Assembly: GCA_023129115.1 (NCBI GenBank)
Contig: JAGMCR010000003.1
Location: 96,001-160,000 of the forward strand
From: Candidatus Iainarchaeum sp.
Lineage (GTDB): Archaea; B1Sed10-29; WALL01
Length of the DNA: 64,000 bases
Direction of reading: 5' to 3'
Shown here: one piece after another, positions 1 through 24,572 of the stretch
Layout: each line of letters opens with the position of its first letter
How positions within the stretch are numbered: position 1 is the first letter of the stretch
Notes under the pieces: model-generated
Database searches by the model: none
Seen by the model: the letters and a program-made list of their open reading frames with translations, nothing else
Told to the model about the DNA's origin: nothing
Program-made: the position numbers and the translations under genes

Positions 1-278
1 TTGTCGCCGCCATCGCGGCTGCGAACCTGATTGGCGCGTACGCGGGCTCGTGGCTGGGAAACCTAAGGGAAAGGGACGCGCTGCTCGTGGGCGTCGGGAT
101 GCTGCCGCGGGGCGGCATTGACCTCGTTATAATCACTGCCGCGAAAACTCTTGGGCTGCTCGAGGGGCCGACTGGTGACTTCGTGTTCTCGGCGGTCGTG
201 ATGGTTGTCTTGATAAGCATGGTCGTCACGCCAATCCTTCTGCACGTACTTTTCAGCCCGAAAAGGCAATACGCTTAA
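1..278 (+). CDS. Cation:proton antiporter (Kef/CPA2-type), C-terminal part, 5' truncated by window
   Basis: Frame open from window start; hydrophobic with GVGMLPRGG motif typical of CPA2 C-termini. Confidence 0.75.
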   Translation, partial: VAAIAAANLIGAYAGSWLGNLRERDALLVGVGMLPRGGIDLVIITAAKTLGLLEGPTGDFVFSAVVMVVLISMVVTPILLHVLFSPKRQYA

Positions 279-309
279 AAAGGGCTCCCAATAGAAAAGA
301 AGGCGCAAA

Positions 310-384
310 AGCGGGGTGGAGTAGTTAGGAGTGCTCGTCGGGCTCATAACCCGAAGGTCATCAGTTCAAATCTGGTCCCCGCTA
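310..384 (+). tRNA. tRNA-Met(CAT), initiator type
   Basis: AGCGGGG...CCCCGCT acceptor stem with A1-U72; anticodon arm TCGGG-CTCATAA-CCCGA with three G-C pairs; T-loop GTTCAAATC. Confidence 0.95.
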
Positions 385-1117
385 CTTTCTTTTTATTTCT
401 CTCAAAAGCCAGCTTGGCTTTTGCCAAGTGTTTCTGGTTTCTAAAACCAATCTTCTCTAACCAGAGGCCGAGGTTTCTTAAGCCATAAACGCAGAGGTGA
501 TGGGATATTACTTCTTTTTCTATTCTTTTATCATAAAACGATAAATCTAAACACAAGGAATAAGTGAAACCCTCTTCATGCAGTGCCTCTGCCACTTCTT
601 GTATTATGTGTTTAGATGCTGTGTTTAGTTCAATTACTGGGTAATACTGAATATTCTTTCCTCTCCTTTTCAGTGCAACACAAAAGTCTGTGTCGGCGAG
701 CCCCGCTATGAAGGCAGGTAGGAGGGGCCGTTCTTCCTTGATTGCTTGGGGGATTCGTAGTTTCTCGTATTTCCTACCACATGGCAGCCCAACCCCAACC
801 AAAAATTGGACTAAGGACTTGGACCAAATTCGGAACCCGTACGTTGTGCCCCCATCAACAAGGTGGGGGAGGATATCCAAATTAAAGAGTTTTTTTATGA
901 GAGGTATAAGCACTTCGTTGTAAAATGGCTTTTCGTCTTTTGGGTTGCCAACACACTTTACTTCGTAATCGGTCCCGTTTTTCTTCCTCCTTGAGACGAG
1001 AGCCCCGTCCCCTGCAAGAACACCAATAAAATAAGCGAGGTCCCTGTCGAGGGTTGTTGGGAATCTAAGCCCGCGCTTTTCATCGAATTTGCTTAATGTG
1101 GGGGAGGGCAACATCAA
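344..1117 (-). CDS. Free-standing LAGLIDADG homing endonuclease (two-motif)
   Basis: Motifs LAYFIGVLAGDG and FIAGLADTDF; AT-richer than flanks; ORF end runs antisense into the tRNA. Confidence 0.85.
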   Translation of the reverse strand: MMLPSPTLSKFDEKRGLRFPTTLDRDLAYFIGVLAGDGALVSRRKKNGTDYEVKCVGNPKDEKPFYNEVLIPLIKKLFNLDILPHLVDGGTTYGFRIWSKSLVQFLVGVGLPCGRKYEKLRIPQAIKEERPLLPAFIAGLADTDFCVALKRRGKNIQYYPVIELNTASKHIIQEVAEALHEEGFTYSLCLDLSFYDKRIEKEVISHHLCVYGLRNLGLWLEKIGFRNQKHLAKAKLAFERNKKKVAGTRFELMTFGL

Positions 1118-1211
1118 ACAAAAGACCGATTTTCTAAATAAATGGCTTGTGGTTAGGGGTTGCCGAGAACCTCTACTAACTTTTTATGCCCAAAAGTCCA
1201 ATAACTATGTG

Positions 1212-1442
1212 ATGGGCAAGCCAGTCAGAATCAAATACCATTTGGGCGAGAAGAACCCTTTGGCCGGGCGCTTCAGCAAGGAAGCAGAGGACGCTGTACT
1301 CAAAAAGTATGGGAATCTCCCCATGGCCTATATTGTTAAGGACTGCCGGCGGAAACGCAAAAGAGTTGACGAAAAAATCAAAGAACTCGGGGGACGCGCC
1401 GAGCGGCTGGTGGGGGTTGATGCGCTCGTCGCAGAGTTCTAG
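1212..1442 (+). CDS. Small basic hypothetical protein
   Basis: ORF from ATG 1212 (MGKPVRIKY) downstream of TTTTTAT TATA-like box. Confidence 0.5.
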   Translation: MGKPVRIKYHLGEKNPLAGRFSKEAEDAVLKKYGNLPMAYIVKDCRRKRKRVDEKIKELGGRAERLVGVDALVAEF

Positions 1443-1554
1443 AAGCGAACCGCGTGGTTTTTGCTGTTGGGACTGCGGTTCCCTTTTACCGGCACCCCCC
1501 ATTCTTCCAGTAATGTGGGTGTCGGGGCCCATCACGCGCGAAAAAACGTCAAAT

Positions 1555-1579
1555 TTACGTAAATATTACGTAATATTAC
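1555..1579. repeat. Tandem TTACGTAA palindromes
   Basis: TTACGTAA at 1555 and 1566, partial TTAC at 1576. Confidence 0.7.
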
Positions 1580-1794
1580 TTGGGAAACACCAGTGTGAGC
1601 GAGGAATTGCCAAGTTTCTTTAGCTTTACGTACTTTTTCAGCACGGGCTTCACAAAGTTGCCTGCGCGGTCGTGGTAGCCATAAAGGTAGTTGCAGACAG
1701 TTGCCGGGCTGACTTTTGACTTTCGGGCTAACTCGCGGATCCAGATGCCTCTGGGGTGTCTGCGGATTTCTGTGAGGACTGTCTCGGAATGCAT
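1576..1794 (-). CDS. Small HTH DNA-binding protein
   Basis: IWIRELARKSKVSPATVCNYL helix-turn-helix signature. Confidence 0.75.
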   Translation of the reverse strand: MHSETVLTEIRRHPRGIWIRELARKSKVSPATVCNYLYGYHDRAGNFVKPVLKKYVKLKKLGNSSLTLVFPK

Positions 1795-1814
1795 GGAATC
1801 ACTGTTGGGGAATC

Positions 1815-1898
1815 AAAAATTAATTGTTAATTATTAATTAATTATTGAACACTGTTCAATTATTACTTATTACTTACTTAATCACTTATTAAACTTTT
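1815..1898. promoter_or_regulatory. Very AT-rich upstream region with ATTGAACA-C-TGTTCAAT palindrome (putative operator)
   Basis: Inverted repeat 1844-1860 within TTAATTA/TTACTTA repeats upstream of the HTH gene. Confidence 0.5.
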
Positions 1899-1907
1899 GG
1901 TTTTGCT

Positions 1908-2555
1908 TCACTCACTACCTTTCCCAACAGCTAATTCGCTGAGGAATCCCTTTGCCTCGTCAACGCTTGGCCGGAAGGGGAACTTAATTTCCCTAAACTC
2001 ATAGCCGAAGTCAAGCACGTGCTCCAAAAACTCAATTTCCCTGTAGTCAAAGGGGAGTACGTACAGGTGGAGGCGGAGGTCATCCTTTTGCTTGGCGTCT
2101 GAGGCAGCCATCAGCAGGTTCAGCATTTCCCAAGTATAATTCGCGGGCTTTGGGAAATGGTATAAGAGCGCATTCGCCTCAAAGTTCATTTCGCCGCCAG
2201 GAACCGGCAAGCTAATGATTGGGGGGTGGGAGTCGTACGAATAGAGGAAGTTTGTCTGGTAGAGCTCGCCCACCTTGCGGGGCACCGGATTTCCTGCGGC
2301 GCGGTTGCCCTTTGTAGTCATCTCCCTAGCGCGTTCCCAACAGCTGTTTTGCGGCGTATACTTAATTAAAAGCCCTGCAGACAGCAGTGGCGCCACGAGT
2401 GAGCGCACCGGCTTCCCTAGCTTTTCGCCGGGGGTCTTTGGGTAGAAGCCCGGGAGGGTCTTCAGGTGCCTCGCAATGCCTGCCACGGTCCTTGGGACTT
2501 GCCCGGAGCAATACACCAGCACTTCCCTCCGGGCTATCCCCCCATCAAAGCCCAC
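1908..2555 (-). CDS. Hypothetical protein with N-terminal winged-helix-like region
   Basis: RTVAGIARHL...LLSAGLLIK pattern; 215-aa ORF with upstream TATA-like box. Confidence 0.55.
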   Translation of the reverse strand: MGFDGGIARREVLVYCSGQVPRTVAGIARHLKTLPGFYPKTPGEKLGKPVRSLVAPLLSAGLLIKYTPQNSCWERAREMTTKGNRAAGNPVPRKVGELYQTNFLYSYDSHPPIISLPVPGGEMNFEANALLYHFPKPANYTWEMLNLLMAASDAKQKDDLRLHLYVLPFDYREIEFLEHVLDFGYEFREIKFPFRPSVDEAKGFLSELAVGKGSE

Positions 2556-2652
2556 GCACAGCCCCCATCAAAACCATTGGACTATTGTAGTTTAAGCACT
2601 AATATAAACTTTTATGTAAACAGAACGGTGACTTAAAACCATTTTTTTTGGT

Positions 2653-3825
2653 TTAGAGTTTTTGGGCGGATTCCTCAATTCTGTCAAAGGCTTGCTTGAT
2701 TAGTGAGTATTCTGTGGCATAGCTCAGGCGTATGAATCCTTCACCGTAGCGGCCGAATTCTGTGCCTGGGACAGCCAGGACCTTAGCGTCTTTGAGCAGG
2801 AACTCGCAGAATTGGCCGGAAGTAAGCTTTTTGCCACGTTTCTTGAAGTGTATGCTTGGGAAGGCATAAAACGCGCCGTCTGGCTCGACTAGCTCAAACC
2901 CCGGGATAGCGCCTAGGCGCTTCACCACGAGCTTTCTGCGGCGGTCGTACTCCCTCCGCATGCGCTCTACGCAGCCCTGCGAGCCCGTGAGCGCGTGGTA
3001 GCCTGCGATTTGGCTCATTGTGGGGGCAGTAAGCGTGGTGTAAGTGTGCAGCCGTGTCATTGCCTTGATGAGCTCCTCTGGCCCAACTGCGTAGCCGAGG
3101 CGGTAGCCAGGCATGGCATAGCTCTTGGAAAAGGTCTGGAAGGTGACGCAGTGGTTTTCCATGCCGTTCAGTGAAGCCATTGAGTGGTATTTGCCCTCGT
3201 AGACCAGCTTTTCGTACGCCTCGTCCATGAAAACAAGGAAGTCGTGCTCGATTGCGATGTCGGCAAGCTCCTCAAGGCGTTTTTTCTTGAGCACTGTGCC
3301 GGTGGGGTTACTCGGCGACGACAGCACTATTGCCCGGACGCGCTTCGGGTCCTTGATGGCGGCTTCAATCGCGTCTGTGTAGAGCTGGAACCCGTCCTCT
3401 TCCTTCAGCGGGATAGAGATAGGGTATGCGTTGAACGCCTCAACCGTCGGGATGTAGCTCAGGAAGCAGGGGTCCGGGACAAGCACTTCTTCGCCGGGGT
3501 CGAGAATGCTCATGAGCCCGAGGAAGATGGCCTCGTTCGAGCCGCACGTGACAATGATGTTTTTGTCGGGGTCGATGCCCACGCGGCGGTCTTTCCTAAA
3601 CTTTTTGGCTATTGCCTCACGCAGCTCGGGCCTGCCGGCCATTGAGGAGTAATGGGTTTTTCCCGCGTCAAGCGCGTTTTTCGTGGCCTGGCGGATGAAC
3701 TTGGGCGTGTCGAAGTCTGGCTCCCCCGGCCCGAGGGAAATCAGGCCCTTGGCTTCGGCGGCCAGCCGCAGGATTCGCACGAAGTTGCTGTCCCGCAGCA
3801 GCAGTTGCCTTTCAGCGATTTGCAC
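2653..3825 (-). CDS. PLP-dependent aminotransferase class I/II
   Basis: GEPDF, NPTG, DEAY, SKSYAMPGYRLG motifs; likely GTG start at 3825. Confidence 0.92.
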   Translation of the reverse strand: MQIAERQLLLRDSNFVRILRLAAEAKGLISLGPGEPDFDTPKFIRQATKNALDAGKTHYSSMAGRPELREAIAKKFRKDRRVGIDPDKNIIVTCGSNEAIFLGLMSILDPGEEVLVPDPCFLSYIPTVEAFNAYPISIPLKEEDGFQLYTDAIEAAIKDPKRVRAIVLSSPSNPTGTVLKKKRLEELADIAIEHDFLVFMDEAYEKLVYEGKYHSMASLNGMENHCVTFQTFSKSYAMPGYRLGYAVGPEELIKAMTRLHTYTTLTAPTMSQIAGYHALTGSQGCVERMRREYDRRRKLVVKRLGAIPGFELVEPDGAFYAFPSIHFKKRGKKLTSGQFCEFLLKDAKVLAVPGTEFGRYGEGFIRLSYATEYSLIKQAFDRIEESAQKL

Positions 3826-3862
3826 GCACAAATAAATACATGGGGTGTTAATAAAGGTTATT

Positions 3863-4606
3863 ATGAGGGCTGCACTGCTTTCGACCCCAAAGTTCAAGAA
3901 CCTCGCCGAGGTAAAGCGAATACTGGAACTAAGGGGGTGGTCCCTTGTCAAAGCCAACCCCGATTACGTAATCACAGTCGGCGGGGATGGCTCCATCCTA
4001 TACGCAGAGTCAAAATACCCCGGCGTCCCCATAATCTCACTGAATGCGGGCGAGCTCGGTTTCCTGGCCTGCAACGAGATAGATATGCTTGAAGAAGTAC
4101 TCAGCGCCGTGGAGAAGGGCAAAATGCTTGTGGATAAGCGGGAGAAGCTAGAATTCACAGTAAAAGGCAAAAAGCGGCGCGCTTTGAACGAGGTTCTTGT
4201 GACGAGCTCCACCGCGGGCAAGGCCCTCAGGCTGAACATTGAGATAGACGGCGAGCCCCTGGGCTTCTTTGTGTGCGACGGCGTGCTTGTATCGACGCCA
4301 ACTGGCTCCACAGGCTATAACCTGAGCTGCGGTGGGCCAGTGCTCGAGCCAGGGAGCGGGGCAGTGGCGATTACGCTCATCAGCCCCCACCTGTCAAGGG
4401 TGAACAGCGTTGTGGTGTCAAGCAGCAGGAAAATCACTGTCTCGTTCGCCAGGGAAAACCCGGGCATAACCGTGGTTGCTGATGGCCTGGAGTCAGTCAA
4501 AATAAGCCACAGCGAAAAAGTGCTGATTACACGGGCTAAAGGCAAGGCTAAGCTGGTAAAGCTTTCCCGCAACTACTTCTCTCGCCTCGAAAAGCTGTTC
4601 ACTTAG
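3863..4606 (+). CDS. nadK: NAD(+)/NADH kinase
   Basis: GGDGS, GELGFL, ALNE, DGVLVSTPTGSTGY motifs. Confidence 0.93.
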   Translation: MRAALLSTPKFKNLAEVKRILELRGWSLVKANPDYVITVGGDGSILYAESKYPGVPIISLNAGELGFLACNEIDMLEEVLSAVEKGKMLVDKREKLEFTVKGKKRRALNEVLVTSSTAGKALRLNIEIDGEPLGFFVCDGVLVSTPTGSTGYNLSCGGPVLEPGSGAVAITLISPHLSRVNSVVVSSSRKITVSFARENPGITVVADGLESVKISHSEKVLITRAKGKAKLVKLSRNYFSRLEKLFT

Positions 4607-4910
4607 TCCTTCCGAGAAGGCTCCTTCGTGGGGTGTAGCTGGGCTTGGCCTCAGCCCCTCCTTCTTCAACGACCCCACTGCTCGCGCCGAGTATTACGAT
4701 GTCCCCGACCGCAGAAACGTTCTTGTAAAGGACGCTCTTTTCCTTGAGCACTTCCTTTGCCTTTTCCTTCGAGACAGAACGGAGTGGCTCAGTGGTGAGC
4801 CGGACAATCTTCCCGGTCTCGAGGTTAAGTATGATGTCGTTTACCTTGCCCACGTACTTCGCGCCCTCGGAGTAAATGTCAATGCCGTATAGCTCTGAAA
4901 TGTGCATCAT
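4599..4910 (-). CDS. PRC-barrel domain protein (CdpB-like)
   Basis: LYGIDIYSEGAKYVGKVNDIILN...AVGDIVIL PRC-barrel pattern. Confidence 0.8.
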   Translation of the reverse strand: MMHISELYGIDIYSEGAKYVGKVNDIILNLETGKIVRLTTEPLRSVSKEKAKEVLKEKSVLYKNVSAVGDIVILGASSGVVEEGGAEAKPSYTPRRSLLGRTK

Positions 4911-4985
4911 TCCCATGCGCCTCCAATGCAAAACAATATAATGCCTGCCCCATTAAATAAGCGAAGGGGGTTTATAAAGGTTATC

Positions 4986-5621
4986 ATGGCGAAAATCGAG
5001 CGCTTCAAGACAAAAGACAAGGCAATTTCAATAGTGGGCACGGGCCATGTCCTCCGAAAGTCGCTCCAGGCGGTCAAATCCGAGATACAGGACTTCGCGC
5101 CGGACGCGGTCGCCCTCGAGCTGGACCTGGGGCGCTTCCTCGCCCTGACCCAGCGCACGAGGCCGCGGCCCAAGGGCTTTGTAGAGGTGCTGCTGTTCGA
5201 GCTGCAGAAGCAGGCGGGCAAGACCACCGGCGTTAAGCCGGGGGCAGAGATGGTCGCGGCTGCGCGCGAGGCCAGAAAACATGGCATCCCAGTCGTCCTC
5301 GTGGACCGCGACATCCGCGTCACGCTCAAGCGCGCTTTACGTAATATGACGCTTTCAGAAAAGGTGAAGCTCTTGACCGGAATCATCGGCGGCTTCTTTG
5401 AGGTGAGGGACAAGGCCAGGCTCAACACCCTGATTGACCAAAAGGACGAGCTCATGGTCGAGTTCAAGCGCGAGCTCCCGTCTGTCTACAAGGCGTTGGT
5501 CACCGAGCGCGACGCCTATATGGCAAAAGCAATTTCTTCGCTTCCCTACAGCAAAGTCTTGGCAGTTGTCGGCGCCGGGCACATCGCAGGAATAAGGAAG
5601 CGGCTCGAATACCGGAAGTAA
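4986..5621 (+). CDS. TraB/PrgY/GumN family protein
   Basis: GTGHV, VALELD, PGAEM, ERDAYMA, VVGAGHIAGI motifs. Confidence 0.88.
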   Translation: MAKIERFKTKDKAISIVGTGHVLRKSLQAVKSEIQDFAPDAVALELDLGRFLALTQRTRPRPKGFVEVLLFELQKQAGKTTGVKPGAEMVAAAREARKHGIPVVLVDRDIRVTLKRALRNMTLSEKVKLLTGIIGGFFEVRDKARLNTLIDQKDELMVEFKRELPSVYKALVTERDAYMAKAISSLPYSKVLAVVGAGHIAGIRKRLEYRK

Positions 5622-5633
5622 GGGGGTAAGGGT

Positions 5634-5718
5634 TTATGTAATATTACGTAATATTGCGCAACTTTACGTAATATTACGTAATGTGGCTTAGTTGACGCGT
5701 AAAGTTTACGTAAACTTT
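5634..5718. repeat. 10-bp-periodic array of TTACGTAA-type palindromes
   Basis: Units at 5634 (TTATGTAA), 5644, 5654 (TTGCGCAA), 5664, 5674; 18-bp palindrome AAAGTTTACGTAAACTTT 5701-5718. Confidence 0.85.
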
Positions 5719-5728
5719 ACCAATGCCA

Positions 5729-6412
5729 TCACAGCTCTTTCAGGAGCCGGTATTTGGTTTTTCTCCCGCTTTTCACGGATTCCACGTAACCCGCCGCCTG
5801 GAGTGCCTTTAGGCGGCCCCAGATGTACTGCCGCGTCAGCCCTATCTCCTCTGCGAGGCCGATGGTGCTCAGCTCACTCTCCCCCAGCGCGTTAATTATC
5901 TTCTCGTCGCACTCCAGGAGATCGATTTTTTCATCTATCTCGTCAAGTGCTTTCACCTGACGCGTCAACTCATGCCTTGACGTGTCAACTTGACGCGTCA
6001 ACTCACCCCTCGTTGCCCGTAAATCTTCGAGTTTGTCGCCCAGGCCGTCAATCCCTACCAAAACGCGGTCTCCCTTGGAAATGTCTTCGTGGACCATGGC
6101 CTTCAGGTCGTCTATATCCTGTTTCGTGGCTACTTTGCCGTCTATCACTATAACGCGGTCGTTCATGGACTTATAAATCTCTTCGAGCTTGGATATCCGG
6201 TCCTGAATCGTCAAAAGGGGGTGCTCGACAGCCGGGCTGTATACCCTGGGGGCCTGCACCTCCATACTCTCCATTAGCATAGTGGCTTCTGGCGTGTTTT
6301 TTTGCTCGTGCCTCTTGGAAAGCGTCTTCTTCAGCTCAGACTCTTCCAGCGTTGGCTTTGCCTTTGTCTTTTTGCTCTTCTTGCGTAAGAAGTCGAACAT
6401 GCCCATGCCCAC
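5729..6412 (-). CDS. Coiled-coil protein with C-terminal winged HTH
   Basis: Heptad-rich centre; LSTIGLAEEIGLTRQYIWGRLKALQAAGYV-SGRKTKY wHTH. Confidence 0.75.
   Translation of the reverse strand: MGMGMFDFLRKKSKKTKAKPTLEESELKKTLSKRHEQKNTPEATMLMESMEVQAPRVYSPAVEHPLLTIQDRISKLEEIYKSMNDRVIVIDGKVATKQDIDDLKAMVHEDISKGDRVLVGIDGLGDKLEDLRATRGELTRQVDTSRHELTRQVKALDEIDEKIDLLECDEKIINALGESELSTIGLAEEIGLTRQYIWGRLKALQAAGYVESVKSGRKTKYRLLKEL
5958..6002. repeat. Three intragenic TGACG(C/T)GTCAAC palindromic repeats
   Basis: Copies at 5958, 5978 and 5991 inside the wHTH CDS. Confidence 0.75.
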
Positions 6413-6621
6413 TTCTTATAAATGTTCTCAAATAAATACGTTATGTTACGTAATGTGACGCGTTGTTTACCAGCCACTTGACGCAAATCAGCCCCTTTTT
6501 TGGTGAGAGCGGGAAAACCCTACAGGATTTCCCAGCACCGGCTCTCACAACACAAACCCTCACTTTTTCACTATTTTGATTAAAACTATAACACCCACTC
6601 ACTTTTTGTTTTTCAGCTTAT

Positions 6622-6647
6622 GGGGGGCCGCCAATTGGCGGCCCCCC
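6622..6647. repeat. 26-bp perfect palindrome (family copy 1)
   Basis: GGGGGGCCGCCAATTGGCGGCCCCCC. Confidence 0.85.
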
Positions 6648-6904
6648 GTTGGCGGCCTCTCACGTTTGCCCTTCCGCCAGTAACCACTCCCTTTTTTGGT
6701 TTTCTCAAGTCACCAGCCGGCCCAAATCCGCTGCCTCTCACTTTTCAGCTGTTGGGAGTTGCATTGGGTACAGCCCCCACAACTGCCTGGCCCGCCAATG
6801 GTCCAACCCTCACTTTTGCTTTTTTGGCCTTTGTGGAAGCCAGCCCCCCGTGCGGCCAGGCGCAGGCCCACTCCCAACACGCACTTTCGTGTTTTCAGCA
6901 CTAA

Positions 6905-6930
6905 GGGGGGTCGCCAATCGGCGGCCCCCC
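6905..6930. repeat. Imperfect copy of the GC palindrome (copy 2)
   Basis: GGGGGGTCGCCAATCGGCGGCCCCCC. Confidence 0.8.
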
Positions 6931-7297
6931 AAGTTTCTTTTGCTGGCCCCGCCTGGGACCCACTTTTTGGCCTTATTTACCCACTCTAACTCACTCCCAA
7001 CACCCATTTTGCCCCCAACCCCCTTATTCTCACTTTCTGGCTTCAAAACCCTTTTTTGATGTTTGGTTTCCCGGTTTTTTGCCTGGGGAGGGGGGTTTTT
7101 TCGCTGGCCCACACTTTTCCCGGTTTTTTGATTCCACGAGCCCGAACTCTCACTTTTCCTTAATCCTCAATTCAACTCCAAAATATATTTTATAAAATAT
7201 AAAATACGTAATATGTTACTCCAATATTATTGCACATCTTCGAAACACCGAAATAGAAAAGGTTAAATAGCTGTTCCAACACATATTTTCCAGTGAA

Positions 7298-7570
7298 GTG
7301 ATGCACATGGAGCCGAGTTTGTTCTTGCACGAAAAGCCCGTCAGGGCCATTGTAGCGCTGTCTGACACGAAGAGGACGTGGTACGCCCATTTGCTTTCCA
7401 AGGAGATTGACTGCAGCTATGCCCATCTGGCGAAGGTGCTGGACCAGTTCGAGGAGAATGGGCTGGTCGAGTTCCACAAGGAGGGGCGCGTGAAGCTCTT
7501 GAGCATGACCAAAAAGGGCGAGGAGCTGGCGCACGACCTCGAGACCGTGCTGATGCGGCTGTCAAAGTGA
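7298..7570 (+). CDS. Winged-helix (MarR-like) DNA-binding protein
   Basis: LSKEIDCSYAHLAKVLDQFEENGLV..EGRVK..MTKKG. Confidence 0.85.
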   Translation: MMHMEPSLFLHEKPVRAIVALSDTKRTWYAHLLSKEIDCSYAHLAKVLDQFEENGLVEFHKEGRVKLLSMTKKGEELAHDLETVLMRLSK

Positions 7571-7623
7571 CCGGAAAAGAGTTTGGTCTTCCCCCAAAGA
7601 ATTTGTCAGAAGATTGCTGCAAT

Positions 7624-8094
7624 TTATACGCCTAGTGCGAGCACTGCCATGAGCAGCATTTCCTCGTCGTCCTTGGTTATGCCGGTGTATTCGCCTTCTA
7701 TGCCCTTCCCGAGGTTGGAGAGGATGGGGATATAGACGCCTTCAGGCCTTATGACGCCGACCTGCTTGCCGTCCTTGACTATCTCAAAGTGCTGCTTGAA
7801 GAGGGTCTCGCGCTCCTTGATTTCGAAGGATTTCTTGGCCTTGTGGTAGACGTCGAAGTGCGTCATGAAGCCAATTTTTTCCTCTACTTTGCCAATGTAC
7901 TCGTTTTCGCGGTAGACTTTGGCGCCGCGGATTACGAGGCCAGAGCGGACTATGGTGTAGTGGGTGGGCCCCCAGTCGACGTCGAGCACGTCCTTGTAGA
8001 AGGGCCTGATTGCGTGTATGGTTTCGTCGCCGGTCTTCCTCCTTACCTTCAGCCGCGCCTTGCGCAGCTCCGAGAATAGGCTAAAGCTTGCCAT
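7624..8094 (-). CDS. Hypothetical protein (possible LURP-one/Tubby-C-like fold)
   Basis: Repeated beta hairpins (IGKVEEK, VGVIR) with terminal hydrophobic helix. Confidence 0.5.
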   Translation of the reverse strand: MASFSLFSELRKARLKVRRKTGDETIHAIRPFYKDVLDVDWGPTHYTIVRSGLVIRGAKVYRENEYIGKVEEKIGFMTHFDVYHKAKKSFEIKERETLFKQHFEIVKDGKQVGVIRPEGVYIPILSNLGKGIEGEYTGITKDDEEMLLMAVLALGV

Positions 8095-8095
8095 G

Positions 8096-8443
8096 TTAAC
8101 TCCTCCACCTGTTGACGAATGCCTGCCAGATGTCCGCCATTTCTTGGCAGCGGTTGCCGAACTGCTCGCTCATTATCCAGTCGCCGCTCCTCTTGGTGAT
8201 GAGGCCGGCGTCCCTGAGCTTGGACAGCATGGTGTAGTACTCCTGGTGCGTGGAGCCGAGTTGTTTCTGCATCTCGGCCCATTCTGCGTCCGGAATGCGC
8301 TTCCTCTCGATGAGCGCGTAGACGAGCTTCTCCGCTTTTTTGGACAATTCGGGCTTGCGGTAGAACAGGTTCTCGAGGATTGTCCGCAGGTCCGGCACGC
8401 GCTCCCGCGCCTTGATTTTGATGGTTGTCTCGTACTTCACCAT
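8096..8443 (-). CDS. Hypothetical winged-helix-like protein
   Basis: YYTMLSKLRDAGLITKRSGDW pattern; start probably ATG 8443 or 8479. Confidence 0.6.
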   Translation of the reverse strand: MVKYETTIKIKARERVPDLRTILENLFYRKPELSKKAEKLVYALIERKRIPDAEWAEMQKQLGSTHQEYYTMLSKLRDAGLITKRSGDWIMSEQFGNRCQEMADIWQAFVNRWRS

Positions 8444-8709
8444 TTGCCTAGCCCTTAATGCGCCAGTATATTTATCCATTTCGGTATCACCCCGGAACAG
8501 TCCTCGCACCCGCCAGCGAGCACGCTTTCCCCGGTCTAGCTCTTGCCGTAATACACCGGTTCCGGGCTCGGCTAAGCCTGGTTGCCGGCGAAAACACCAC
8601 GGAAAAGCACAACCACGCATTCCAGTCCGGCATCATGCCGTAATCCCATCCCGCAGGAAGAAAGCTTTTTTATTCTCGCCCGCCACAACTTATTCACTTG
8701 GTGATATTC

Positions 8710-9483
8710 ATGGCAGGCAAGAAAGGCTCTGGCAAAAAAGGCTCTGGCAAAAGGAGGGTAAGGGATCCGATCACCTTCTACGTTGATTTGGTGGGCCGCA
8801 AGACCGCGAAGAGGGCAACAACCAATCTCCATAAGGACCTGAAGAAAATCAGGGGGCGGGTCAAGAAAATAGTCCGCGAGCATAACAAAGAGAGGAAGAA
8901 GCTCGCGAAAAACGACTTGAAGGGCCACATAGACCTGGTCCAAAACACCCTGCTCTACCTCTACGTCGCCAAGGCGTTCCAGGAGGGCCTGGTGGGGGAT
9001 GCCCAGATCCACGTAAAGCAACAGAAGGAGCGTGACGAAGGATTTGAAATGCCCAAGCCATTCACAACCAACCTCAATCTGCTTTCTGTGAAGCTCGGGA
9101 ACCACATCATGGAGTTCGAGACGCACAAAGAAACACTCAACCAGAAGGCTGAAGAGCTTGAGCAGATGCTCGCGGAGCTGAATGCGTCTGCCGAAGAGAT
9201 CGCAGAGATGCAGGAAGCAAAAGAGGAGTACGAGCCGCACCCCCGGGGCAAACTCGGCGGCCTCCCTGTTAGCCCAAGCGACATCCGCAAGACGATGGTC
9301 GAAGAAGCGCTCAGGTCTGGCAAGTCACCCGAAGAAATCAAAAAGATTACCGCCCAAACCGGATATTCAGGCATAAAGCTCCCAAGAAGGTATTCGGACA
9401 CGAACTTCAAGAAGATTGCGTCACGCGTTAGGAAAATGGTTAAAGACGAGCAAGAGAAAAAATTGTATAAAAACAAGAGATAA
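8710..9483 (+). CDS. Lys-rich coiled-coil hypothetical protein
   Basis: GGTGA RBS before ATG 8710; N-terminal GKKGS repeat. Confidence 0.7.
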   Translation: MAGKKGSGKKGSGKRRVRDPITFYVDLVGRKTAKRATTNLHKDLKKIRGRVKKIVREHNKERKKLAKNDLKGHIDLVQNTLLYLYVAKAFQEGLVGDAQIHVKQQKERDEGFEMPKPFTTNLNLLSVKLGNHIMEFETHKETLNQKAEELEQMLAELNASAEEIAEMQEAKEEYEPHPRGKLGGLPVSPSDIRKTMVEEALRSGKSPEEIKKITAQTGYSGIKLPRRYSDTNFKKIASRVRKMVKDEQEKKLYKNKR

Positions 9484-9486
9484 GGT

Positions 9487-9888
9487 TCACTCGACCCGCA
9501 GCCTCGCGGGGAAGTGCTGCTGGTCAGTGATTTTGTCGAACCTTTCGTCGTGCTCGCGCACGATTACGTCGAAGTCGTAGAACCCCGGCGTTATGTTGAA
9601 CTTGCCGTAGATGCTGAACTTCGCCTCTTTTTTCTTTGTGGGGTCCACGTTCTTGATGCGTATGCGGTGCTCGCGCATCAATCCACTGCGGTCGAACCCA
9701 AACGCGAACGGCACCTTGACGCTGACGCTGTAGCTCTTGGTCTGCCTCCCACGGTTCCTTACCTCCACGCCCAGCGACACCGGCTCCTTCTGCCCCACAA
9801 TCATCCTGATTGGGAGAAAGGAGGTCCGCACGTACATCCCGTTGTCTTTTTGCTCTTCCACATAAACACCGTACATTAATATACTCAC
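9487..9888 (-). CDS. Hypothetical beta-sandwich (Ig-like) protein
   Basis: Alternating beta pattern, VEVRNRG and PGFYDFDV motifs. Confidence 0.55.
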   Translation of the reverse strand: MSILMYGVYVEEQKDNGMYVRTSFLPIRMIVGQKEPVSLGVEVRNRGRQTKSYSVSVKVPFAFGFDRSGLMREHRIRIKNVDPTKKKEAKFSIYGKFNITPGFYDFDVIVREHDERFDKITDQQHFPARLRVE

Positions 9889-9907
9889 TGCGAGAATAAA
9901 TACTTAC

Positions 9908-10354
9908 ATGGTGCCTGAAAAAGAGCTAATCAAGCGGGAATACACGGTGCGGGGCATGCGCCTCCCGAACGAGACCAAGCTCACGCGCCAGTCCCTATTG
10001 CGCTGGCTCTGCCTCTCGCTCGGCCTCTTGTCGCCGGACGAGTCACGCCAGAGCGTGCTCCCAATCATGGACTCTTTCCTCGAGCTCCAGTTCTCCGGGC
10101 AAAAGCCAACGGTCGCTGAACTGTCAGAGAAAAGCGGCCAGCCAGAAAAAGCAGTGCGCTACCACATGCACCGGCTCATGGCGATGGGCCTGGCCCAGGA
10201 AGAGAAGCGCCACTATTCTTTCGTGCTCGACTCGTCGTCCGACTCACTCTCGCTGCCAAAGACATTCCGCGAGCATTACGCGGAATCCCTCTTGGCAAGC
10301 CTGTTTTCAATCGAGGGCGCGCTCAAGGAATTGCAGCGCTCGTACGAGGGCTAG
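9908..10354 (+). CDS. ArsR-like HTH protein
   Basis: TVAELSEKSGQPEKAVRYHMHRLMAMGLA. Confidence 0.8.
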   Translation: MVPEKELIKREYTVRGMRLPNETKLTRQSLLRWLCLSLGLLSPDESRQSVLPIMDSFLELQFSGQKPTVAELSEKSGQPEKAVRYHMHRLMAMGLAQEEKRHYSFVLDSSSDSLSLPKTFREHYAESLLASLFSIEGALKELQRSYEG

Positions 10355-10450
10355 GTTAACCAGCGGGTTTCCCCCCACGAAACCACACAAAATTCAAAGC
10401 CATTCCCAACAGTTATTCCGCAAAACAAGCCCGATTTAACCTTGTTTCCC

Positions 10451-10480
10451 TGTTGGGAGTTGCATACCTCACTCCCAACA
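10451..10480. promoter_or_regulatory. Inverted repeat TGTTGGGAGT-N10-ACTCCCAACA in non-coding block 10355-10785
   Basis: Perfect 10-bp arms; same half-site recurs at 6750, 6870, 6993. Confidence 0.65.
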
Positions 10481-10785
10481 CCAAAAACCACTTTCTCGTG
10501 CCCCTTCTCCTATCTCCTTCCCTCTCCGACCATAACTCGCTTTTCTCGGCAAGAAATAGCCACTGGAAACTATACTCTAAAACCATTATTATCAACAATA
10601 CACTCCAAAAACTATAAGTAACAAACTATCAATCACAAACTATATTTTATTGTTTATACTTCTTGCCGTGGCCACTCACTTTGCCCCCCACACATAAACA
10701 CCTCAACCGCCACAACACCGCAAAACCGCGTGCCACAGCGCTTTCCAGCCCCCCCTCCACCCAAAAACAAACATTAATCGAAAAG

Positions 10786-11376
10786 TTATTGCGAAGGGGC
10801 GGTTTTTGATTTGATTTCGTCCATCAACTTATCATCCAAAAAGGTAAGAACATTGAGTGGGTATTTTTCCAGGTAGTCAAGGGTGTTGTCCCAAACATCA
10901 TGTTTGGCCCGTATGCTCTCTATCAGTTCTTTTTGGTGTTGCCTGAATTCTTCTAGTTCGATTAGTTTCATTCTCCGTCTTTCTTCAGCTGTTGGCTCGG
11001 GTTCTGGCCCGTACTCCTCAAGGTCAACGCTTTTGGCTTCCACTACGTTGTTGCGGATGCCGTTTAATGTTTTTTCTGCTGTTTTTTTTAATTCCACCAA
11101 GGTAGCATGGACTTCCTTCCATTCTTCGGTTGTGCCCCCTGTTCCCCCCATTTTTTCGAACTGGCCACTCAATTCGGCTTCGGCGTACTTCAATTTGTTT
11201 TGCAGGCGCTCGTGATGGCGGAGCAGTTGTGCGTAGGGGTCGATCCCACGGTTTTTAAATATCCACCCCCCCAGCTCTGGCTTAAACGGCTGGAATAACT
11301 CCATGACGTGGCTTTTTATTTTACGCATTTCGCCTATCTTGTTTTGGCTGTGGGCTTCGGAGGGCTTCAGCTCCAT
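10786..11376 (-). CDS. Charged coiled-coil hypothetical protein
   Basis: 196-aa E/K-rich ORF, lower GC. Confidence 0.6.
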   Translation of the reverse strand: MELKPSEAHSQNKIGEMRKIKSHVMELFQPFKPELGGWIFKNRGIDPYAQLLRHHERLQNKLKYAEAELSGQFEKMGGTGGTTEEWKEVHATLVELKKTAEKTLNGIRNNVVEAKSVDLEEYGPEPEPTAEERRRMKLIELEEFRQHQKELIESIRAKHDVWDNTLDYLEKYPLNVLTFLDDKLMDEIKSKTAPSQ

Positions 11377-17192: not shown

Positions 17193-20100
17193 GTGCTCAA
17201 GCAGTTGGGAATCGACAAGCTCAACCCCGTGCAGGAAGAGGCGCTAGCCACGCGGTTCATCGAGAACCGCACCAACCTCGTCGTTTCCTCACCAACCGGC
17301 TCGGGCAAAACCCTAATTTCTTTGCTTGCGGCTTTGGAAGTAATCAAACAAGGCAAGAAAGTATTGTACCTATGCCCCCTACGCGCGCTCGCCTCAGAGC
17401 ACTACGACACATTCAAAAAAGTTCCAGGCCTGAGGGTTGCCTTATCAACCGGCGATTTGGACTCTCGTGACCACCACTTACAAAACTATGACCTAATCAT
17501 CACTACAACAGAGAAAGCCGACTCCCTCATGCGCCACAAGTCCAAGTTCGTGCCAGGCGTCGGCCTCCTGGTCGCGGACGAAATACACCTGCTCGACACC
17601 AACCGCGGCGCTACGCTCGAGACCATCATCACGCGCTTCCGACAGCTCCTCCCCAAATGTCAAATCATCGCCCTCTCTGCCACGGTCCCGAACGCAAAAG
17701 AAATAGCGGACTGGCTCGGCGCAGAGCTCGTCGAGAGCGACTGGCGCCCCACCCGGCTTACCAAAGGGGTCTACTACGAAAACATTATCGAGACCGACGC
17801 CGGAACAATCGAGGTATCCTCGACAGCAAAAACGCCCGTCCTCCAATTGGTCGAGGACACCGTCGCCCGCGGCGGCCAATCGCTCGTGTTCGTGAACACG
17901 CGCCGCTCCGCAGTCGCCGAGGCCCGCCGCATCGCGTCAACACTCAACCTCAACAACGAAGACCTCGCCGACAAAATCCTTTCCGCGCTGGAGTCCCCCA
18001 CCCGCCAGTGCAAAGAACTGGCAGACATAGTCCGAAAGGGCGCCGCGTTCCACACCGCCGCCCTCGTCGCCGAACAAAGAAAGCTAATCGAGAGCGCCTT
18101 CCGCGAAGGAAAAATCAAGGCCATCGCCGCCACGCCCACTTTATGTTTACCTCCCGACACCAGAATTTTGCTGTCGGATGGTAGCTACACACCAATAAAA
18201 AAAGTTGGAGTTGGAATGTCAGTTAAATCCCTAGACCCCAAGACTCTTAAACTGGTTGACAATAAAGTTGTTTCAACAGGCAAACGAAAAACAAGTGGGT
18301 TGGTTAAACTAGTAACTCGAACAGGAAAAAAGATTGAGTTGACTAGTAATCACCCTATTTTGGTCAATGAGTTTGGAGAGCTCAAATGGATTCAAGCAGG
18401 TAAACTAACCAAAGACATGTGGGTGGCGACTCCTCGTCTAGTAGAAAAAGATCCTGTTGACGTGTTTACTTTGGATGTTCTTCCGCATGATAAATTAAAA
18501 GTAATTGGTTCTGAGAGAGTGTTTGGACGGGTGGTTGATTCTCTTTTACCTACATATAAAACAAAGAAAACGATGTATGAGCGTTACGGTATAAATGAGA
18601 ATAGTTTTTTCAATTACTTGCGGGGGAAGACATCCATTCCTTTAGATCTGTTATTGGGCATGGCTGAGGATGCGGGTCTTAAACAAGAGGGAGTGTACAA
18701 GGGAATAAAGAGGGTGCTTTATTCTAGGTCGCCACATCTGAAAGACGCTTTAAGGCTACCTCTCTATATCAATAAAGACTTGGTCAAATTCATAGCTTAT
18801 ATGCTTGCTGATGGTTCTGTTTCGAGAAAACTGTCGTGGTGGGTGGGTCATTCTTATGTTATTTCTTTTACTTCATCAGATAAAGCAAAAATAAAGGAAT
18901 TTCAAGCGGTTGTCCGCAGAGTGTTTGGCTTGAACAGTAAAGTGGTAGAAAGTTATTTTGATGATGGGGTCTCACACGTGAGGATTACATCAAAAACTCT
19001 TGGTTTGTTGCTTGAATGTTTTGGGGTCACCCCGGGAAGAAAAGCACACATCATAAGGATTTGCCCGTTTTTTTTCTCTTTGTCAAACGAGTTGATTTTA
19101 GAATTCATCTTTTCTTTGATTGAATGTGATGGTTGTTTCAGGGTTCAGGATAATGCCATAGAATATTATACCTCAAGCAAAGATTTTGCCACAGACCTAC
19201 AATCATTATTACTGAGCCAGGGGGTCATCTCTTCCATTTATCTGAAGAAAAATGATGGGGTCCGAGAGTTCCATAACCAGTTTATTGTTGCCAAGCACCC
19301 GCATTACCGTTTAGTGATAACTGGCAAGTCCGCAAAAAGATTGTTTAATCGTTTTGGAATTAAGACCAATCAAACAAAGACAACTTATGAAAAAGACCAG
19401 ATTCCCCTGTCCATGAAGCTGCTTGAATTAAGAAAGAAACTTGGTATCTCAACATATGAAGCAAGGCAGTTGTCTGGTGTAGATTTTTGGGTTGCTGAGA
19501 ACACACATAGAGTACTGACAAGAAAGACGGTGAAGAAAATTTGTTCAGTTCCCGCGTTAAGTTCGCCACCATTAGACGACATAAAAAGATTGGCGTTCTC
19601 CGATATTTACTGGGAAGAAATAAAAGATATCACTAAACAAAAAAAGAAAACAGATGTTTTTGATTTAAGTGTTGAATCAACCCATAGTTTCGTAGCTAAT
19701 AACATTATTGTTCATAACTCAATGGGCGTTAATTTACCAGCGGACACTGTAATCGTCCGCGACCTCTCCCGCTACACCGAGAACGGCCTCTCCCCAATCA
19801 GCGTGCGCGAGTACCTCCAGATGTGCGGCCGCGCGGGCCGCCCCAACTACAGCAAGGACGGACTCTCGGTCTGCGTCGCCAAGGACCTCGCCGACAAGGA
19901 CACATTCTTTTCCGACTATGTCATGGGCAAGCCCGAAAAAGTGTATTCCCAATTGGGGTTCGAGCCCGTGCTCCGCACCCAGCTCCTCGCGAGCATCGCG
20001 GTCGGCTTCACGCCGACGCGCAAGAAGCTCGACGAATTCCTCCTCAATTCCTTTTACGCCTTCCAGTACGGCGAAATCGACTCCATCCGCCGCAAGGCAG

Positions 20101-23385: not shown

Positions 23386-24572
23386 GCAAACCTCTTCTCG
23401 ACCGCTGCCTTGACTTTTCCGGGCGGGAAGGACAATTTAATCAGCCTCGTGTTCCCCCGTATCCCTGGCCCGCTCATGGTCATCGTAATCAATCCCATCA
23501 TGTCGAGCTCGTTGAGGTATTCCCTGAACCACCTCGCGCTCCTCGCCATGGTCTTCCACTTCTTGCACAGGCTTTCGTAGCCCTCATACGCTTCTCCGGA
23601 AAACAGCAGCCGCTCCCCGTTGTCGGTCAGCCTCCGGTACTTGCTCCCCTCCGCAGTAAGGTTGGCAATCGCGTAGAGCACGATGCTCTGGTGCTCGGGC
23701 AGCGTGTTAATCAGCTCAATGACAATGTCTTCCTCGACCGCGCTCCTCGCCTTCTTCACGTACTCTTCAGTCGCTTTCGTGTCCTGTGCGTCAGCGAACT
23801 CGCCCGCCTTCAGCAGGAGCCGCAGCGCGTACCTCGCGTCGCCGCTTTCCTGCGCGGCGAACGCGGCGGCCAAGCCAATCGCGCCGTCTGTGATGTAGCC
23901 TTTCCTGAACCCTTCTTTCGCGCGGTCGGCGAGTATGGCGCTCAATTGCTCCGCGTTGTACGGCGCGAAGACCATTTCGTCCTGGCACAGCGTCGACTTG
24001 CTCCTCGGGTCAAGCTTTTCCTTGAAGTTAATCTTGTTGCTTATCCCGACCAGCGCGATGTGCCCCTTCTTCAAATCATCATTCGCACGCGTCAGCGCGT
24101 ACACCAGGTCGTCCAGATCTTTTACCTTGTCGATTTCGTCCAGCACCACGATGAAGACAAGCCCCTTGTCGACGTATTCCACGAACTTTTCGTAGAGGTG
24201 CGTGGACGACAGCCCGAGGAAGCTCTCGTTCGGCTCGGCGCGCTGCGCGAGCTTCAGCAGGACCTGGTACTTCGTGTTGTGCGTCCTGCAGTTCAGGTAA
24301 ATCGAGTCGACCTGTGCCTCGTACTTTTTCTTGGTCTCGTCGAGCTTTTCCATAACGTGCTTCACGACCGCCGTTTTTCCAACCCCGGTCTTCCCGTACA
24401 GGAAAAGGTTCGACGGCCTCTTCTGCGAGAGCGCTGGGGCGATGACCTTCATCACCTTGGTTATCTCTTCCTCCCGGTACGGCAGCTGGTCCGGCAGGTA
24501 GTGCGGGCTGAGAACGTTCCTGTCCTCAAAAATAGTTGAGCGGTTGATCTCTTTCTCGAACAGGTTTTCCAT
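23382..24572 (-). CDS. cdc6: Orc1/Cdc6 replication initiator
   Basis: GKTGVGKT, VLDEID, GDARYAL, C-terminal wHTH. Confidence 0.95.
   Translation of the reverse strand: MENLFEKEINRSTIFEDRNVLSPHYLPDQLPYREEEITKVMKVIAPALSQKRPSNLFLYGKTGVGKTAVVKHVMEKLDETKKKYEAQVDSIYLNCRTHNTKYQVLLKLAQRAEPNESFLGLSSTHLYEKFVEYVDKGLVFIVVLDEIDKVKDLDDLVYALTRANDDLKKGHIALVGISNKINFKEKLDPRSKSTLCQDEMVFAPYNAEQLSAILADRAKEGFRKGYITDGAIGLAAAFAAQESGDARYALRLLLKAGEFADAQDTKATEEYVKKARSAVEEDIVIELINTLPEHQSIVLYAIANLTAEGSKYRRLTDNGERLLFSGEAYEGYESLCKKWKTMARSARWFREYLNELDMMGLITMTMSGPGIRGNTRLIKLSFPPGKVKAAVEKRFA

Follow-up and report, generated by a model that had tools for sequence, protein, structure and literature searches.

Does a conserved cluster of small putative DNA-binding genes, interleaved with several families of DNA repeats, mark an origin, a terminus or a segregation site of an archaeal chromosome, or is it simply a group of regulators? 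The question is raised by a locus near the beginning of a 64,000-nucleotide stretch of DNA, here called the window (G000:C13:96001-160000). The host is a metagenome-assembled genome (MAG) of a Diapherotrites/Iainarchaeota-type DPANN archaeon, and three sequencing runs of one cold-seep metagenome study contain DNA of the window; no run of RNA was listed as containing it. The assembly, G000, has 1,247,405 bp in 19 contigs, 56% GC and a completeness of 88.6%. The genome is very compact, with about 92% coding DNA by a crude count of open reading frames (ORFs). It was compared with the 12 other genomes of its order (13 genomes in all), 18 further genomes of the class and 10 more distant archaea. 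The locus appears to be a conserved landmark where two replichores adjoin, and most probably it is the zone in which replication forks meet (the terminus), a reading of the sequence that is put forward tentatively and somewhat short of an even chance. Given that the boundary is real, a terminus seems roughly twice as probable as an origin. A preliminary description had proposed a system of winged helix-turn-helix (wHTH) proteins and repeats for initiation, termination or segregation. Its general reading survives, with the data favoring termination over initiation and a classical centromere left without its NTPase partner in the window.

Six helix-turn-helix (HTH) or wHTH genes had been placed at 1576, 1908, 5729, 7298, 8096 and 9908. 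An ORF is present at every one of these positions, and all six are syntenic in relatives. Their identity held in part. The gene at 5729-6412 is above the Pfam cut-off, those at 7298, 1576 and 9908 match below threshold, the match at 8096 is very weak and the gene at 1908 has no Pfam match. Throughout the order, where synteny was established by tblastn, the genes stand in the sequence HTH72, p215, (aminotransferase, NAD kinase), PRC barrel, (TraB), ccWH227, a repeat-filled spacer, WH90, p156, p174, p133 and WH148. These genes and their repeats are called the module below.

The evidence for a boundary comes from the GC skew. On the + strand of contig C13, G exceeds C over the first 96 kb and C exceeds G beyond about 101 kb, as far as the contig end; the skew has a plateau at window 1-5500. 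The inflection expected of a replication locus was thus found exactly at the module. The C-richness of the + strand that had been noticed by eye is real; its onset is near 6 kb of the window and not near 9 kb. In the left arm, + strand skew is +0.138 for + genes, +0.044 for - genes and +0.089 for non-ORF DNA, and in the right arm the values are -0.055, -0.122 and -0.130. Third codon positions behave alike. Because + genes, - genes and non-ORF DNA share their sign in each arm, the skew is of the replication type and not an effect of gene orientation. Most other contigs of G000 carry a single skew sign. A misassembly at the switch was considered and rejected, since the genes on the two sides of the join follow one another in the same order in G001, G004 and G009. 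Logan contigs of the likely source run break inside a tRNA-Met gene, at window 328-357, where contigs of other organisms map as well. This tRNA-Met (CAT) lies at 310-385, and Logan contigs from many other organisms stack on it to a depth of 280-400, compared with 17-19 alongside. It is followed on the opposite strand by a 257-aa LAGLIDADG-type ORF (344-1117), the frame of which runs into the tRNA.

The switch recurs outside the order. G015 and G019 are class-level genomes, and together with G000 they represent three families. Both have an orientation-independent skew, with maxima that are the same raw and corrected. The maximum of G015 (C2:21391) is at the junction of p215 and the PRC-barrel gene, and that of G019 (C1:219913) is about 280 bp past p215. 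The skew maximum is therefore inside the module in three of the three genomes with a readable orientation-independent skew, and the change from G-rich to C-rich is found there wherever such skew can be read. The skew minimum of G015 (C2, near 211 kb) is about 190 kb from its maximum, with genes diverging from it. Neither G015 nor G019 has ccWH227 or the palindrome TTACGTAA. They keep p133, a p174C-like gene (p174C being the conserved part of p174), WH90, the spacer filled with AAAAWGTGAGAG repeats, the PRC-barrel gene and p215, in synteny with aCPSF1, proteasome beta, FKBP, NAC and cdc6. The class-wide module consists of p133, p174C, WH90, a long spacer of same-direction AAAAGTGAGAG(TTC) repeats, the PRC-barrel gene and p215. 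The slot of ccWH227 in G019 holds a gene for a 442-aa protein that combines an AAA_22 ATPase domain and a glutamate-rich coiled coil with a wHTH at its C terminus (L053:9959-11287, G019:C1:216959-218287). At least eight GAGTAATA-type repeats and an AT-rich tandem repeat of 14 bp precede it. Kinship of this protein with ccWH227 or Cdc6 is not detectable beyond generic motifs, and with ccWH227 only the generic helix-turn-helix aligns.

Table 1. Features of the module and of the neighboring replication genes, in window coordinates
Feature	Position	Strand	Remarks
G box, left of inverted pair (variant)	1495-1514	-	
Two TTACGTAA palindromes	1555-1573	.	11 bp apart; just beyond the HTH72 3' end
HTH72	1576-1794	-	72 aa; sub-threshold Pfam wHTH, E 0.018; syntenic homologues 55-58% identical in 5 relatives
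HTH72 promoter spacer	1815-1898	.	AT-rich; palindrome TGAACACTGTTCA at 1846-1858, sole exact copy in genome
p215	1908-2555	-	N-terminal winged-helix-like unit and helical domain, fold unmatched; also at skew maximum of G015 and G019
Aminotransferase	2653-3957	-	Pfam; passenger, in some relatives only
NAD kinase	3845-4606	+	Pfam; passenger, in some relatives only
Third G box	3919-3937	+	Inside NAD kinase gene
Cumulative GC-skew maximum of C13	4561 (C13:100561)	.	Raw and orientation-corrected; at PRC gene
PRC-barrel protein	4599-4931	-	Pfam PRC, E 7.2e-9; adjoins arrays in order, at skew maximum in G015 and G019
TraB/PrgY/GumN family protein	4902-5621	+	Pfam, E 4.7e-25; convergent with ccWH227
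G box, right of inverted pair	5608-5626	+	G run toward arrays
Array of five 8-bp palindromes	5634-5681	.	TTATGTAA, TTACGTAA, TTGCGCAA, TTACGTAA, TTACGTAA; 2-bp spacers, 10-bp period
Array continuation	to 5720	.	TTGACGCGTAA then TTACGTAA; whole array (5634-5720) between convergent TraB and ccWH227 ends
ccWH227	5729-6412	-	227 aa; basic N terminus, continuous helix of ~80 residues, C-terminal ArsR-like winged helix
Three intragenic TGACGYGTCAAC copies	5958-6002	.	Within ccWH227 coiled coil; encode repeated peptide ELTRQV
ccWH227-WH90 divergent spacer	6413-7297	-	885 bp; 8 same-direction AGTGAG-core copies, 5 matching AAAGTGAGDG
TTACGTAA and degenerate neighbor	6435-6459	.	Directly upstream of ccWH227 TATA-like box
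WH90	7298-7570	+	90-aa winged-helix protein; sub-threshold Pfam wHTH, E 1e-4
p156	7624-8094	-	Possible Tubby-C/LURP-one type, a lead only (Atlas)
p174	8096-8620	-	Pfam wHTH very weak, E 0.03-0.04; homologue in G019
p261	8698-9483	+	Lysine-rich coiled-coil ORF; G000 only
p133	9487-9888	-	Conserved protein without assigned function
WH148	9908-10354	+	Winged-helix-like; sub-threshold Pfam wHTH, E 0.0045
Non-coding block	10355-10785	.	431 bp between convergent genes; hairpin GTTGGGAGT/ACTCCCAAC; AT-rich core closed by CGGCAAGAA/TTCTTGCCG
Hel308-like helicase with intein	17193-20849		Context
orc1/cdc6	23382-24572	-	~19 kb from skew maximum
SepF	24715-25074		Divergent from cdc6 across 140-bp spacer containing G-box core ATACCGGAA
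PolD DP2 with intein	26352-31118		Context

A boundary of this kind can be an origin or a terminus. The usual rule is that leading strands are G-rich, and Haloarchaea have C-rich leading strands, according to the accessible portion of PMC1868953. The terminus is favored because of the polarity of the skew, the orientation of a large gene cluster and the direction of most genes in the long arms. The rpoB/S12/EF/S10-L2 supercluster is on the G-rich strand in G000:C4, and in G015 and G019 its transcription runs toward the maximum. Of the coding bases, 82% over 175 kb of G015 and 65% over 126 kb of G019 are oriented in that direction, as are 67% and 61% in the two arms of G000. The competing possibility, which is on the unlikely side, is a non-canonical origin with a haloarchaeal-type inverted skew. 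Its initiation zone would be the spacer before WH90 or the interval bracketed by the G boxes described below. The G boxes would be diverged origin recognition boxes (ORBs) for Orc1/Cdc6, and ccWH227 or the AAA+/wHTH protein of G019 would be an accessory or alternative origin binder. The same skew extremum in three of three readable genomes would suit such an origin, the inverted polarity has its haloarchaeal precedent (in the portion of PMC1868953 that is accessible), and the G019 gene with its own arrays stands at this place. The RNA polymerase and ribosomal supercluster, together with 82% of the genes over 175 kb of G015, would then run head-on to replication.

Several observations weigh against a terminus. 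Under the haloarchaeal polarity (PMC1868953, accessible portion) the skew maximum would be the origin. The genes for cdc6, PolD DP2, the Hel308-like helicase and SepF, 13-25 kb away, look like the neighborhood of an origin, and cdc6 is 18-35 kb from the module also in G015, G019 and G007. In another Diapherotrite the skew-predicted origin adjoins cdc6, as given in the accessible part of PMC5905446. The argument from cdc6 is a weak one because an origin 18-35 kb from cdc6 would also depart from the standard model. In G015 and G019 the prevailing gene direction is the same on both sides of the maximum, and in the short far arms (19-20 kb) most coding bases (80% and 74%) are directed away from it. 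Only 53% of the coding bases of the whole of G000 are on the G-rich strand; that genome has no gene-strand bias and is uninformative on polarity. Its L1 operon is on the C-rich strand of C19. The palindrome TTACGTAA is symmetric, and therefore it would form no polar barrier by itself. Four relatives of the order gave no support: G007:C1 has coding-strand skew only, G009:C36 shows no sign change at the module, and in G006:C30 and G004:C32 the module is at or near a contig end, where the skew lends none. Finally, the ORFs used for the skew correction were called crudely, as the longest non-overlapping stop-to-stop frames of at least 120 aa.

The region around cdc6 was explored for origin features. 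It had been noted that cdc6 is about 13 kb away and has no obvious ORB array beside it. The gene lies 12.6 kb past position 10785, and no repeat array is found in the 140-bp spacer upstream of it. Neither orc1/cdc6 gene of G000 has origin-like features or an origin-like spacer beside it, a lack that favors an origin elsewhere, such as the module. The distance from the skew maximum to cdc6 is about 28 kb in G015 and about 31 kb in G019. In conserved synteny cdc6 is 18-35 kb from the module, and it coincides with no skew switch in any of G000, G015 and G019. The conserved replication gene island (cdc6, PolD DP2 and the Hel308-like helicase) 13-35 kb off speaks for an origin at the module; that cdc6 does not adjoin the module speaks against one. 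The inteins of the helicase and PolD DP2 contain LAGLIDADG domains, and the position of the helicase intein is that of a low-GC stretch (18-20 kb). In G007 the module is inverted compared with G000, and it is on the other side of the block that runs from cdc6 to w47677. Since order and orientation differ in G007, rearrangement has affected the module and the cdc6 block, though the two are still no more than about 30 kb apart. The whole genome was also scanned for ORBs with a 13-nt core (up to 2 mismatches) that matches the consensus quoted in PMC1868953. There were 42 scattered matches and none in the locus, so that an ORB-consensus cluster is lacking there. An ORB-like cluster at C7:47787-48259 was rejected as an origin. 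It is made of direct repeats, CAATGTTTCCACC(C/A)GAAAT..GGGTG, apparently a coding repeat on a contig of lower GC (51.6%). These repeats are nearer to the ORB consensus than anything at the module.

The repeat-bearing spacer between ccWH227 and WH90 is shared across the order. It measures 344-895 bp and has 2-13 AGTGAG-core copies in the ten spacers listed, with a consensus of approximately AAAAGTGAGAGTTC. Every copy is directed toward ccWH227, and the first is about 140-155 nt from WH90 (193 in one locus). The repeat-filled spacer is kept in G015 and G019 too. A long divergent spacer that is rich in repeats and AT-rich at one end is the usual layout of archaeal origins in the accessible portion of PMC1868953, and this resemblance favors an origin; ORBs flank an unwinding element, and the repeats here, all in one direction, differ from them. 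The motif AAAGTGAGDG occurs 19 times in G000, of which 9 copies are outside called ORFs by a script count. When a spurious frame in the spacer is set aside, 6 copies are at the locus and 5 of the 13 others are intergenic. Two near-identical, GC-rich, perfect palindromes of 27 nt (GGGGGGCCGCCAATTGGCGGCCCCCC type) are present at 6621-6647 and 6905-6931, and they were not seen in the spacers of relatives.

Both AT-rich patches that had been described, at 1815-1898 and about 7180-7270, are present in the sequence. Their suggested role as unwinding elements did not hold up, as both look like promoters. The first appears promoter-like because a conserved operator palindrome of HTH72 stands in it; the palindrome (TGAACAnTGTTCA) is shared by L015, L016, L018 and L020. 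The second is at the start of WH90.

The G box is a 20-nt motif, AATACYGGAA-N3-5-GGGGG, with one to three copies per genome in 10 of the 13 genomes of the order and 0 control matches. Most G boxes are in the module, as an inverted pair with the G runs outward around the PRC-p215-HTH72 cassette, and one copy always faces the arrays. In G000 the pair also brackets the skew maximum. The short dyad, A-rich step and G run of the box follow the layout of the ORB consensus GTTCCAGTGGAAAC-AAA----GGGGG (PMC1868953, accessible portion), and the motif is rare and conserved, in favor of an origin. A distance of 4.1 kb, occupied by genes, separates the two boxes of the pair, and one box is in coding DNA, which fits an origin poorly. 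The G-box core ATACCGGAA about 50 nt upstream of cdc6 in G000 would also favor an origin, but it is absent there in G007. The sole G box off C13 (G000:C14:54693-54712) is 12 nt from tRNA-Leu(GAG), just upstream of a TATA-like box. Some 4 kb farther on, close to the end of the contig, the raw skew changes locally from negative to positive.

The protein most closely tied to a set of repeats is ccWH227. It passes Pfam HTH_24 with 29.8 bits against a cut-off of 21.9 (E 4.6e-7), and there are weak TrmB-type Pfam matches (E 0.005). The NCBIfam search gave nothing above its cut-offs, and the two libraries identify ccWH227 only as a generic wHTH protein. The AlphaFold model has a mean pLDDT of 76.9, with residues 120-220 above 90. 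It predicts a disordered basic N terminus and an unbroken helix (97-178) that runs into the winged helix. The best Foldseek matches are repressors of the ArsR/SmtB/CzrA type (E 4e-4 to SmtB/CzrA over 72 columns). TubR chains are also found, at E 0.004 and ranks 42-49, and no Tus or RTP chain is among the matches listed. The gene is present in 10 of the 12 other genomes of the order, in none of the 18 further class genomes and, weakly, in 1 of the 10 distant archaea. Its profile found only 17 clusters below 1e-30 among 1.84 billion representatives.

The 10-bp phasing of TTACGTAA at 5634-5681 can be read straight from the sequence, as had been described. There are 9 matches in the window compared with 0.31 expected, and 9 were reached in 0 of 100 shuffles. 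G000 as a whole has 13, of which 9 are at C13:97555-102446 (window 1555-6453, 4.9 kb). The motifs are therefore specific to the locus and not equally frequent throughout the genome. Two copies, at 3964 and 5337, are within coding DNA of the NAD kinase and TraB genes. Relatives with ccWH227 range from 37 to 56% GC, and across this range the arrays are kept at the homologous genes. A TTACGTAA or TGACRYGTCA palindrome is directly at ccWH227 in 10 of the 10 relatives that carry the gene, always on the 3' side and in several on the promoter side too. Tandems of the form TTACGTAA-N2-4-TTACGTAA occur in 6 of the 13 order genomes and 0 of the 18 other class genomes, and all 11 places are at the module. 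In the genomes of the order, arrays of TTACGTAA/TGACRYGTCA on both sides of ccWH227 are confined to the module. The intragenic TGACGCGTCAAC repeats are also confirmed, as three copies within the gene at 5958-6002; with up to one mismatch there are 5 matches in the window compared with 0.18 expected. One copy of TGACGYGTCAAC is at an equal distance from the gene end in L016, L019 and L020. We infer that ccWH227 binds these palindromes as a dimer.

The promoter sites raise the possibility, itself rather unlikely, that the module is a mere conserved cluster of autoregulated winged-helix transcription factors and that its position at the boundary is an inherited accident. The operators would be TTACGTAA/TGACRYGTCA for ccWH227, TGAACAnTGTTCA for HTH72 and AAAAGTGAGAG for another factor. 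Conserved operator-like palindromes are indeed found in the promoters of ccWH227 and HTH72. In that of ccWH227, TTACGTAA is 25-45 nt upstream of the TATA-like box (6446-6453), with equivalent sites in L015, L016, L018 and L024 and upstream sites of the TGACRYGTCA type in L019. The DNA-binding domain of ccWH227 is of the ArsR/MarR type, and AAAGTGAGDG is found off the locus as well, often in non-coding DNA, a pattern that fits a regulator site. In addition, the three skew coincidences are not independent events because the synteny of the module and its flanks is old. On the other side, the largest arrays are between convergent gene ends where there is no promoter, and a spacer of 344-895 bp with up to 13 AGTGAG cores is long by the standard of a genome with about 92% coding DNA. 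On any one contig, a unique module would come to lie about 3 kb or less from the skew maximum by chance in a few percent of cases. Nor is the region frozen, as the module has moved relative to cdc6 in G007.

The remaining proteins of the module give few leads. The AlphaFold model of p215 has a pLDDT of 88.7. Its N-terminal helix-strand unit aligns weakly in Foldseek with PadR and forkhead winged helices (E about 1 or worse), and Foldseek gave no match at E 0.001 or better. Conservation of p174 is limited to its C-terminal 115 aa (8096-8443, p174C), with a mean column identity of 78%. Profiles of p215, p156, p174C and p133 had no match below E 0.1 in the PDB.

The two non-coding blocks that had been described, at 6413-7297 and 10355-10785, are real, and short motifs are common to both. 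The block at 10355-10785 is 79-85% identical in G002, of the same genus, equal to the conservation of the flanking genes. It folds better than shuffled sequences on both strands (z -2.9 and -3.7), and inverted DNA repeats alone would give such scores. Rfam gave no match to the blocks at gathering scores or at E up to 5. An RNA gene in them is possible but was not adopted. The repeat CTGTTGGGA was dismissed as a mobile repeat, since its 32 copies are mostly Leu-Leu-Gly codons, though 6 are in C13:97.4-106.5 kb. A genome-wide survey of long spacers was too crude for use.

A centromere-like or segregation site, with ccWH227 coating the arrays as ParR, TubR, SegB or AspA do and its coiled coil handing the DNA to a partner, seems very improbable. 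Palindromes phased at 10 bp do adjoin the gene of their presumed binding protein, and the TubR chains among the Foldseek matches would agree with such a role, as would the PRC-barrel gene beside the arrays, PRC-barrel proteins being active in archaeal cell division according to the accessible part of the literature. The similarity to TubR is that of a generic winged helix. No ParA, ParM or TubZ-type NTPase (P-loop, actin-like and tubulin-like families) was found among the 13 proteins of window 344-11376 covered by the Pfam scan. In G015 and G019, which lack ccWH227 and its arrays, both the module and the skew maximum are present.

If the locus is a terminus, its parts could work together in the following manner. 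ccWH227 would form a coiled-coil dimer, and two winged helices would read each palindrome. With a phasing of 10 bp, the dimers at either end of the gene would all sit on the same side of the double helix, where they could shut down their own promoter and assemble into a stable nucleoprotein block. Recognition of the G boxes, of the one-directional repeats in the spacer and of operators of their own may fall to the small winged-helix proteins (WH90, p174C, WH148, HTH72 and p215). The block, the asymmetric G boxes and the bound spacer repeats would then fix or organize the terminus. The outcome could be to block forks, to set a boundary for SMC or segregation, or to tie the region to the divisome by way of the PRC-barrel protein. 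The boldest form of this proposal, and a doubtful one, is that the module is the first sequence-defined archaeal terminus system, a fork trap of lineage-specific winged-helix proteins. In such a trap, the inverted G boxes and one-directional AAAAGTGAGAG repeats would bracket the fork-meeting point and ccWH227 would coat the palindromes. It would be functionally similar to Tus or RTP (perhaps to MatP), independently evolved and possibly coupled to an FtsZ/SepF/PRC-barrel divisome.

Replication termination in archaea is poorly known. Here, in three genomes that belong to three families, a compact conserved module with unique arrays and six small DNA-binding genes lies no more than about 3 kb from a replichore boundary. 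It provides a clonable candidate boundary element in DPANN archaea, which could be a terminus or, with lower probability, an origin away from cdc6, and either would alter the standard picture. It also provides defined pairs of motif and protein, and MAG assemblies of the class could in practice be oriented and checked by means of it. No description of the module was found by literature searches on TTACGTAA in archaea and on DPANN replication origins and GC skew, and the first of these turned up only a yeast review.

To our knowledge, no dedicated terminator protein has been found in archaea, and termination in Sulfolobus is reportedly a collision of forks without specific sites. In bacteria, the Tus-Ter system of Escherichia coli and the RTP-Ter system of Bacillus subtilis each have the gene of the binding protein beside its own sites and repressed by its own product, and RTP is a winged-helix dimer. 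The module is like them in that the gene of a putative DNA-binding protein adjoins the sites, the skew switch has the polarity of a terminus, and asymmetric opposed sites bracket the meeting zone, a place taken here by the G boxes. It is unlike them in that no homology is seen among the matches listed, the main sites are perfect palindromes in phased arrays and ccWH227 contains a helix some 80 residues long. The host here is an archaeon, and fork arrest is only a proposal. MatP, a coiled-coil ribbon-helix-helix protein with a link to the divisome, reads a short palindrome of the GTGAC type (matS) in the terminus of Escherichia coli. The half-sites of TGACRYGTCA presumably resemble those of matS, and a division-type PRC-barrel gene and SepF are near the module. 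Whereas matS sites are scattered over hundreds of kb, the sites here are packed in one array, and a winged helix takes the place of the ribbon-helix-helix.

Partition loci (ParR/parC, TubR/tubC, SegAB and AspA-ParBA) also have a phased array beside the gene of a putative binding protein; unlike them, the module has no partner NTPase among the 13 proteins scanned. With autoregulated repressors of the ArsR/MarR type, ccWH227 shares the wHTH domain and a palindromic putative operator in its own promoter. If the locus is an origin, ccWH227 or the AAA+/wHTH protein of G019 would be comparable to WhiP, which binds the origin oriC3 of Sulfolobus. Archaeal ORB origins, as presented in the accessible portion of PMC1868953, resemble the module in the long divergent repeat spacer with an AT-rich part, the rare G-run boxes, the skew extremum and the replication genes nearby. 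They differ from it in that cdc6 is 13-35 kb off, the boxes are off the ORB consensus, the repeats are one-directional, and the polarity and gene direction are those of a terminus. Membership in the class of ORB/cdc6 origins fails on ORB sequence and on adjacency.

The nearest archaeal comparison is with Thermococcales, where the accessible parts of two papers give Xer/dif at the terminus (PMC2958812) and only dif and the TrmBL2 boundary as marks of the terminus region (PMC2958812; PMC11840125). An imperfect 11-6-11 inverted repeat of the dif type arises trivially from any three phased palindromes. In Thermococcus kodakarensis, the chromosomal boundary surrounding dif is made by TrmBL2, a winged-helix filament protein (PMC11840125, accessible part). 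On the basis of that part, TrmBL2 is an abundant genome-wide protein of a different family, while the sites here are at one locus. Like the TrmBL2/dif boundary, the module is a landmark of a (probable) archaeal terminus region, made of conserved DNA that is putatively coated by a winged-helix protein, and ccWH227 has weak matches to the TrmB family.

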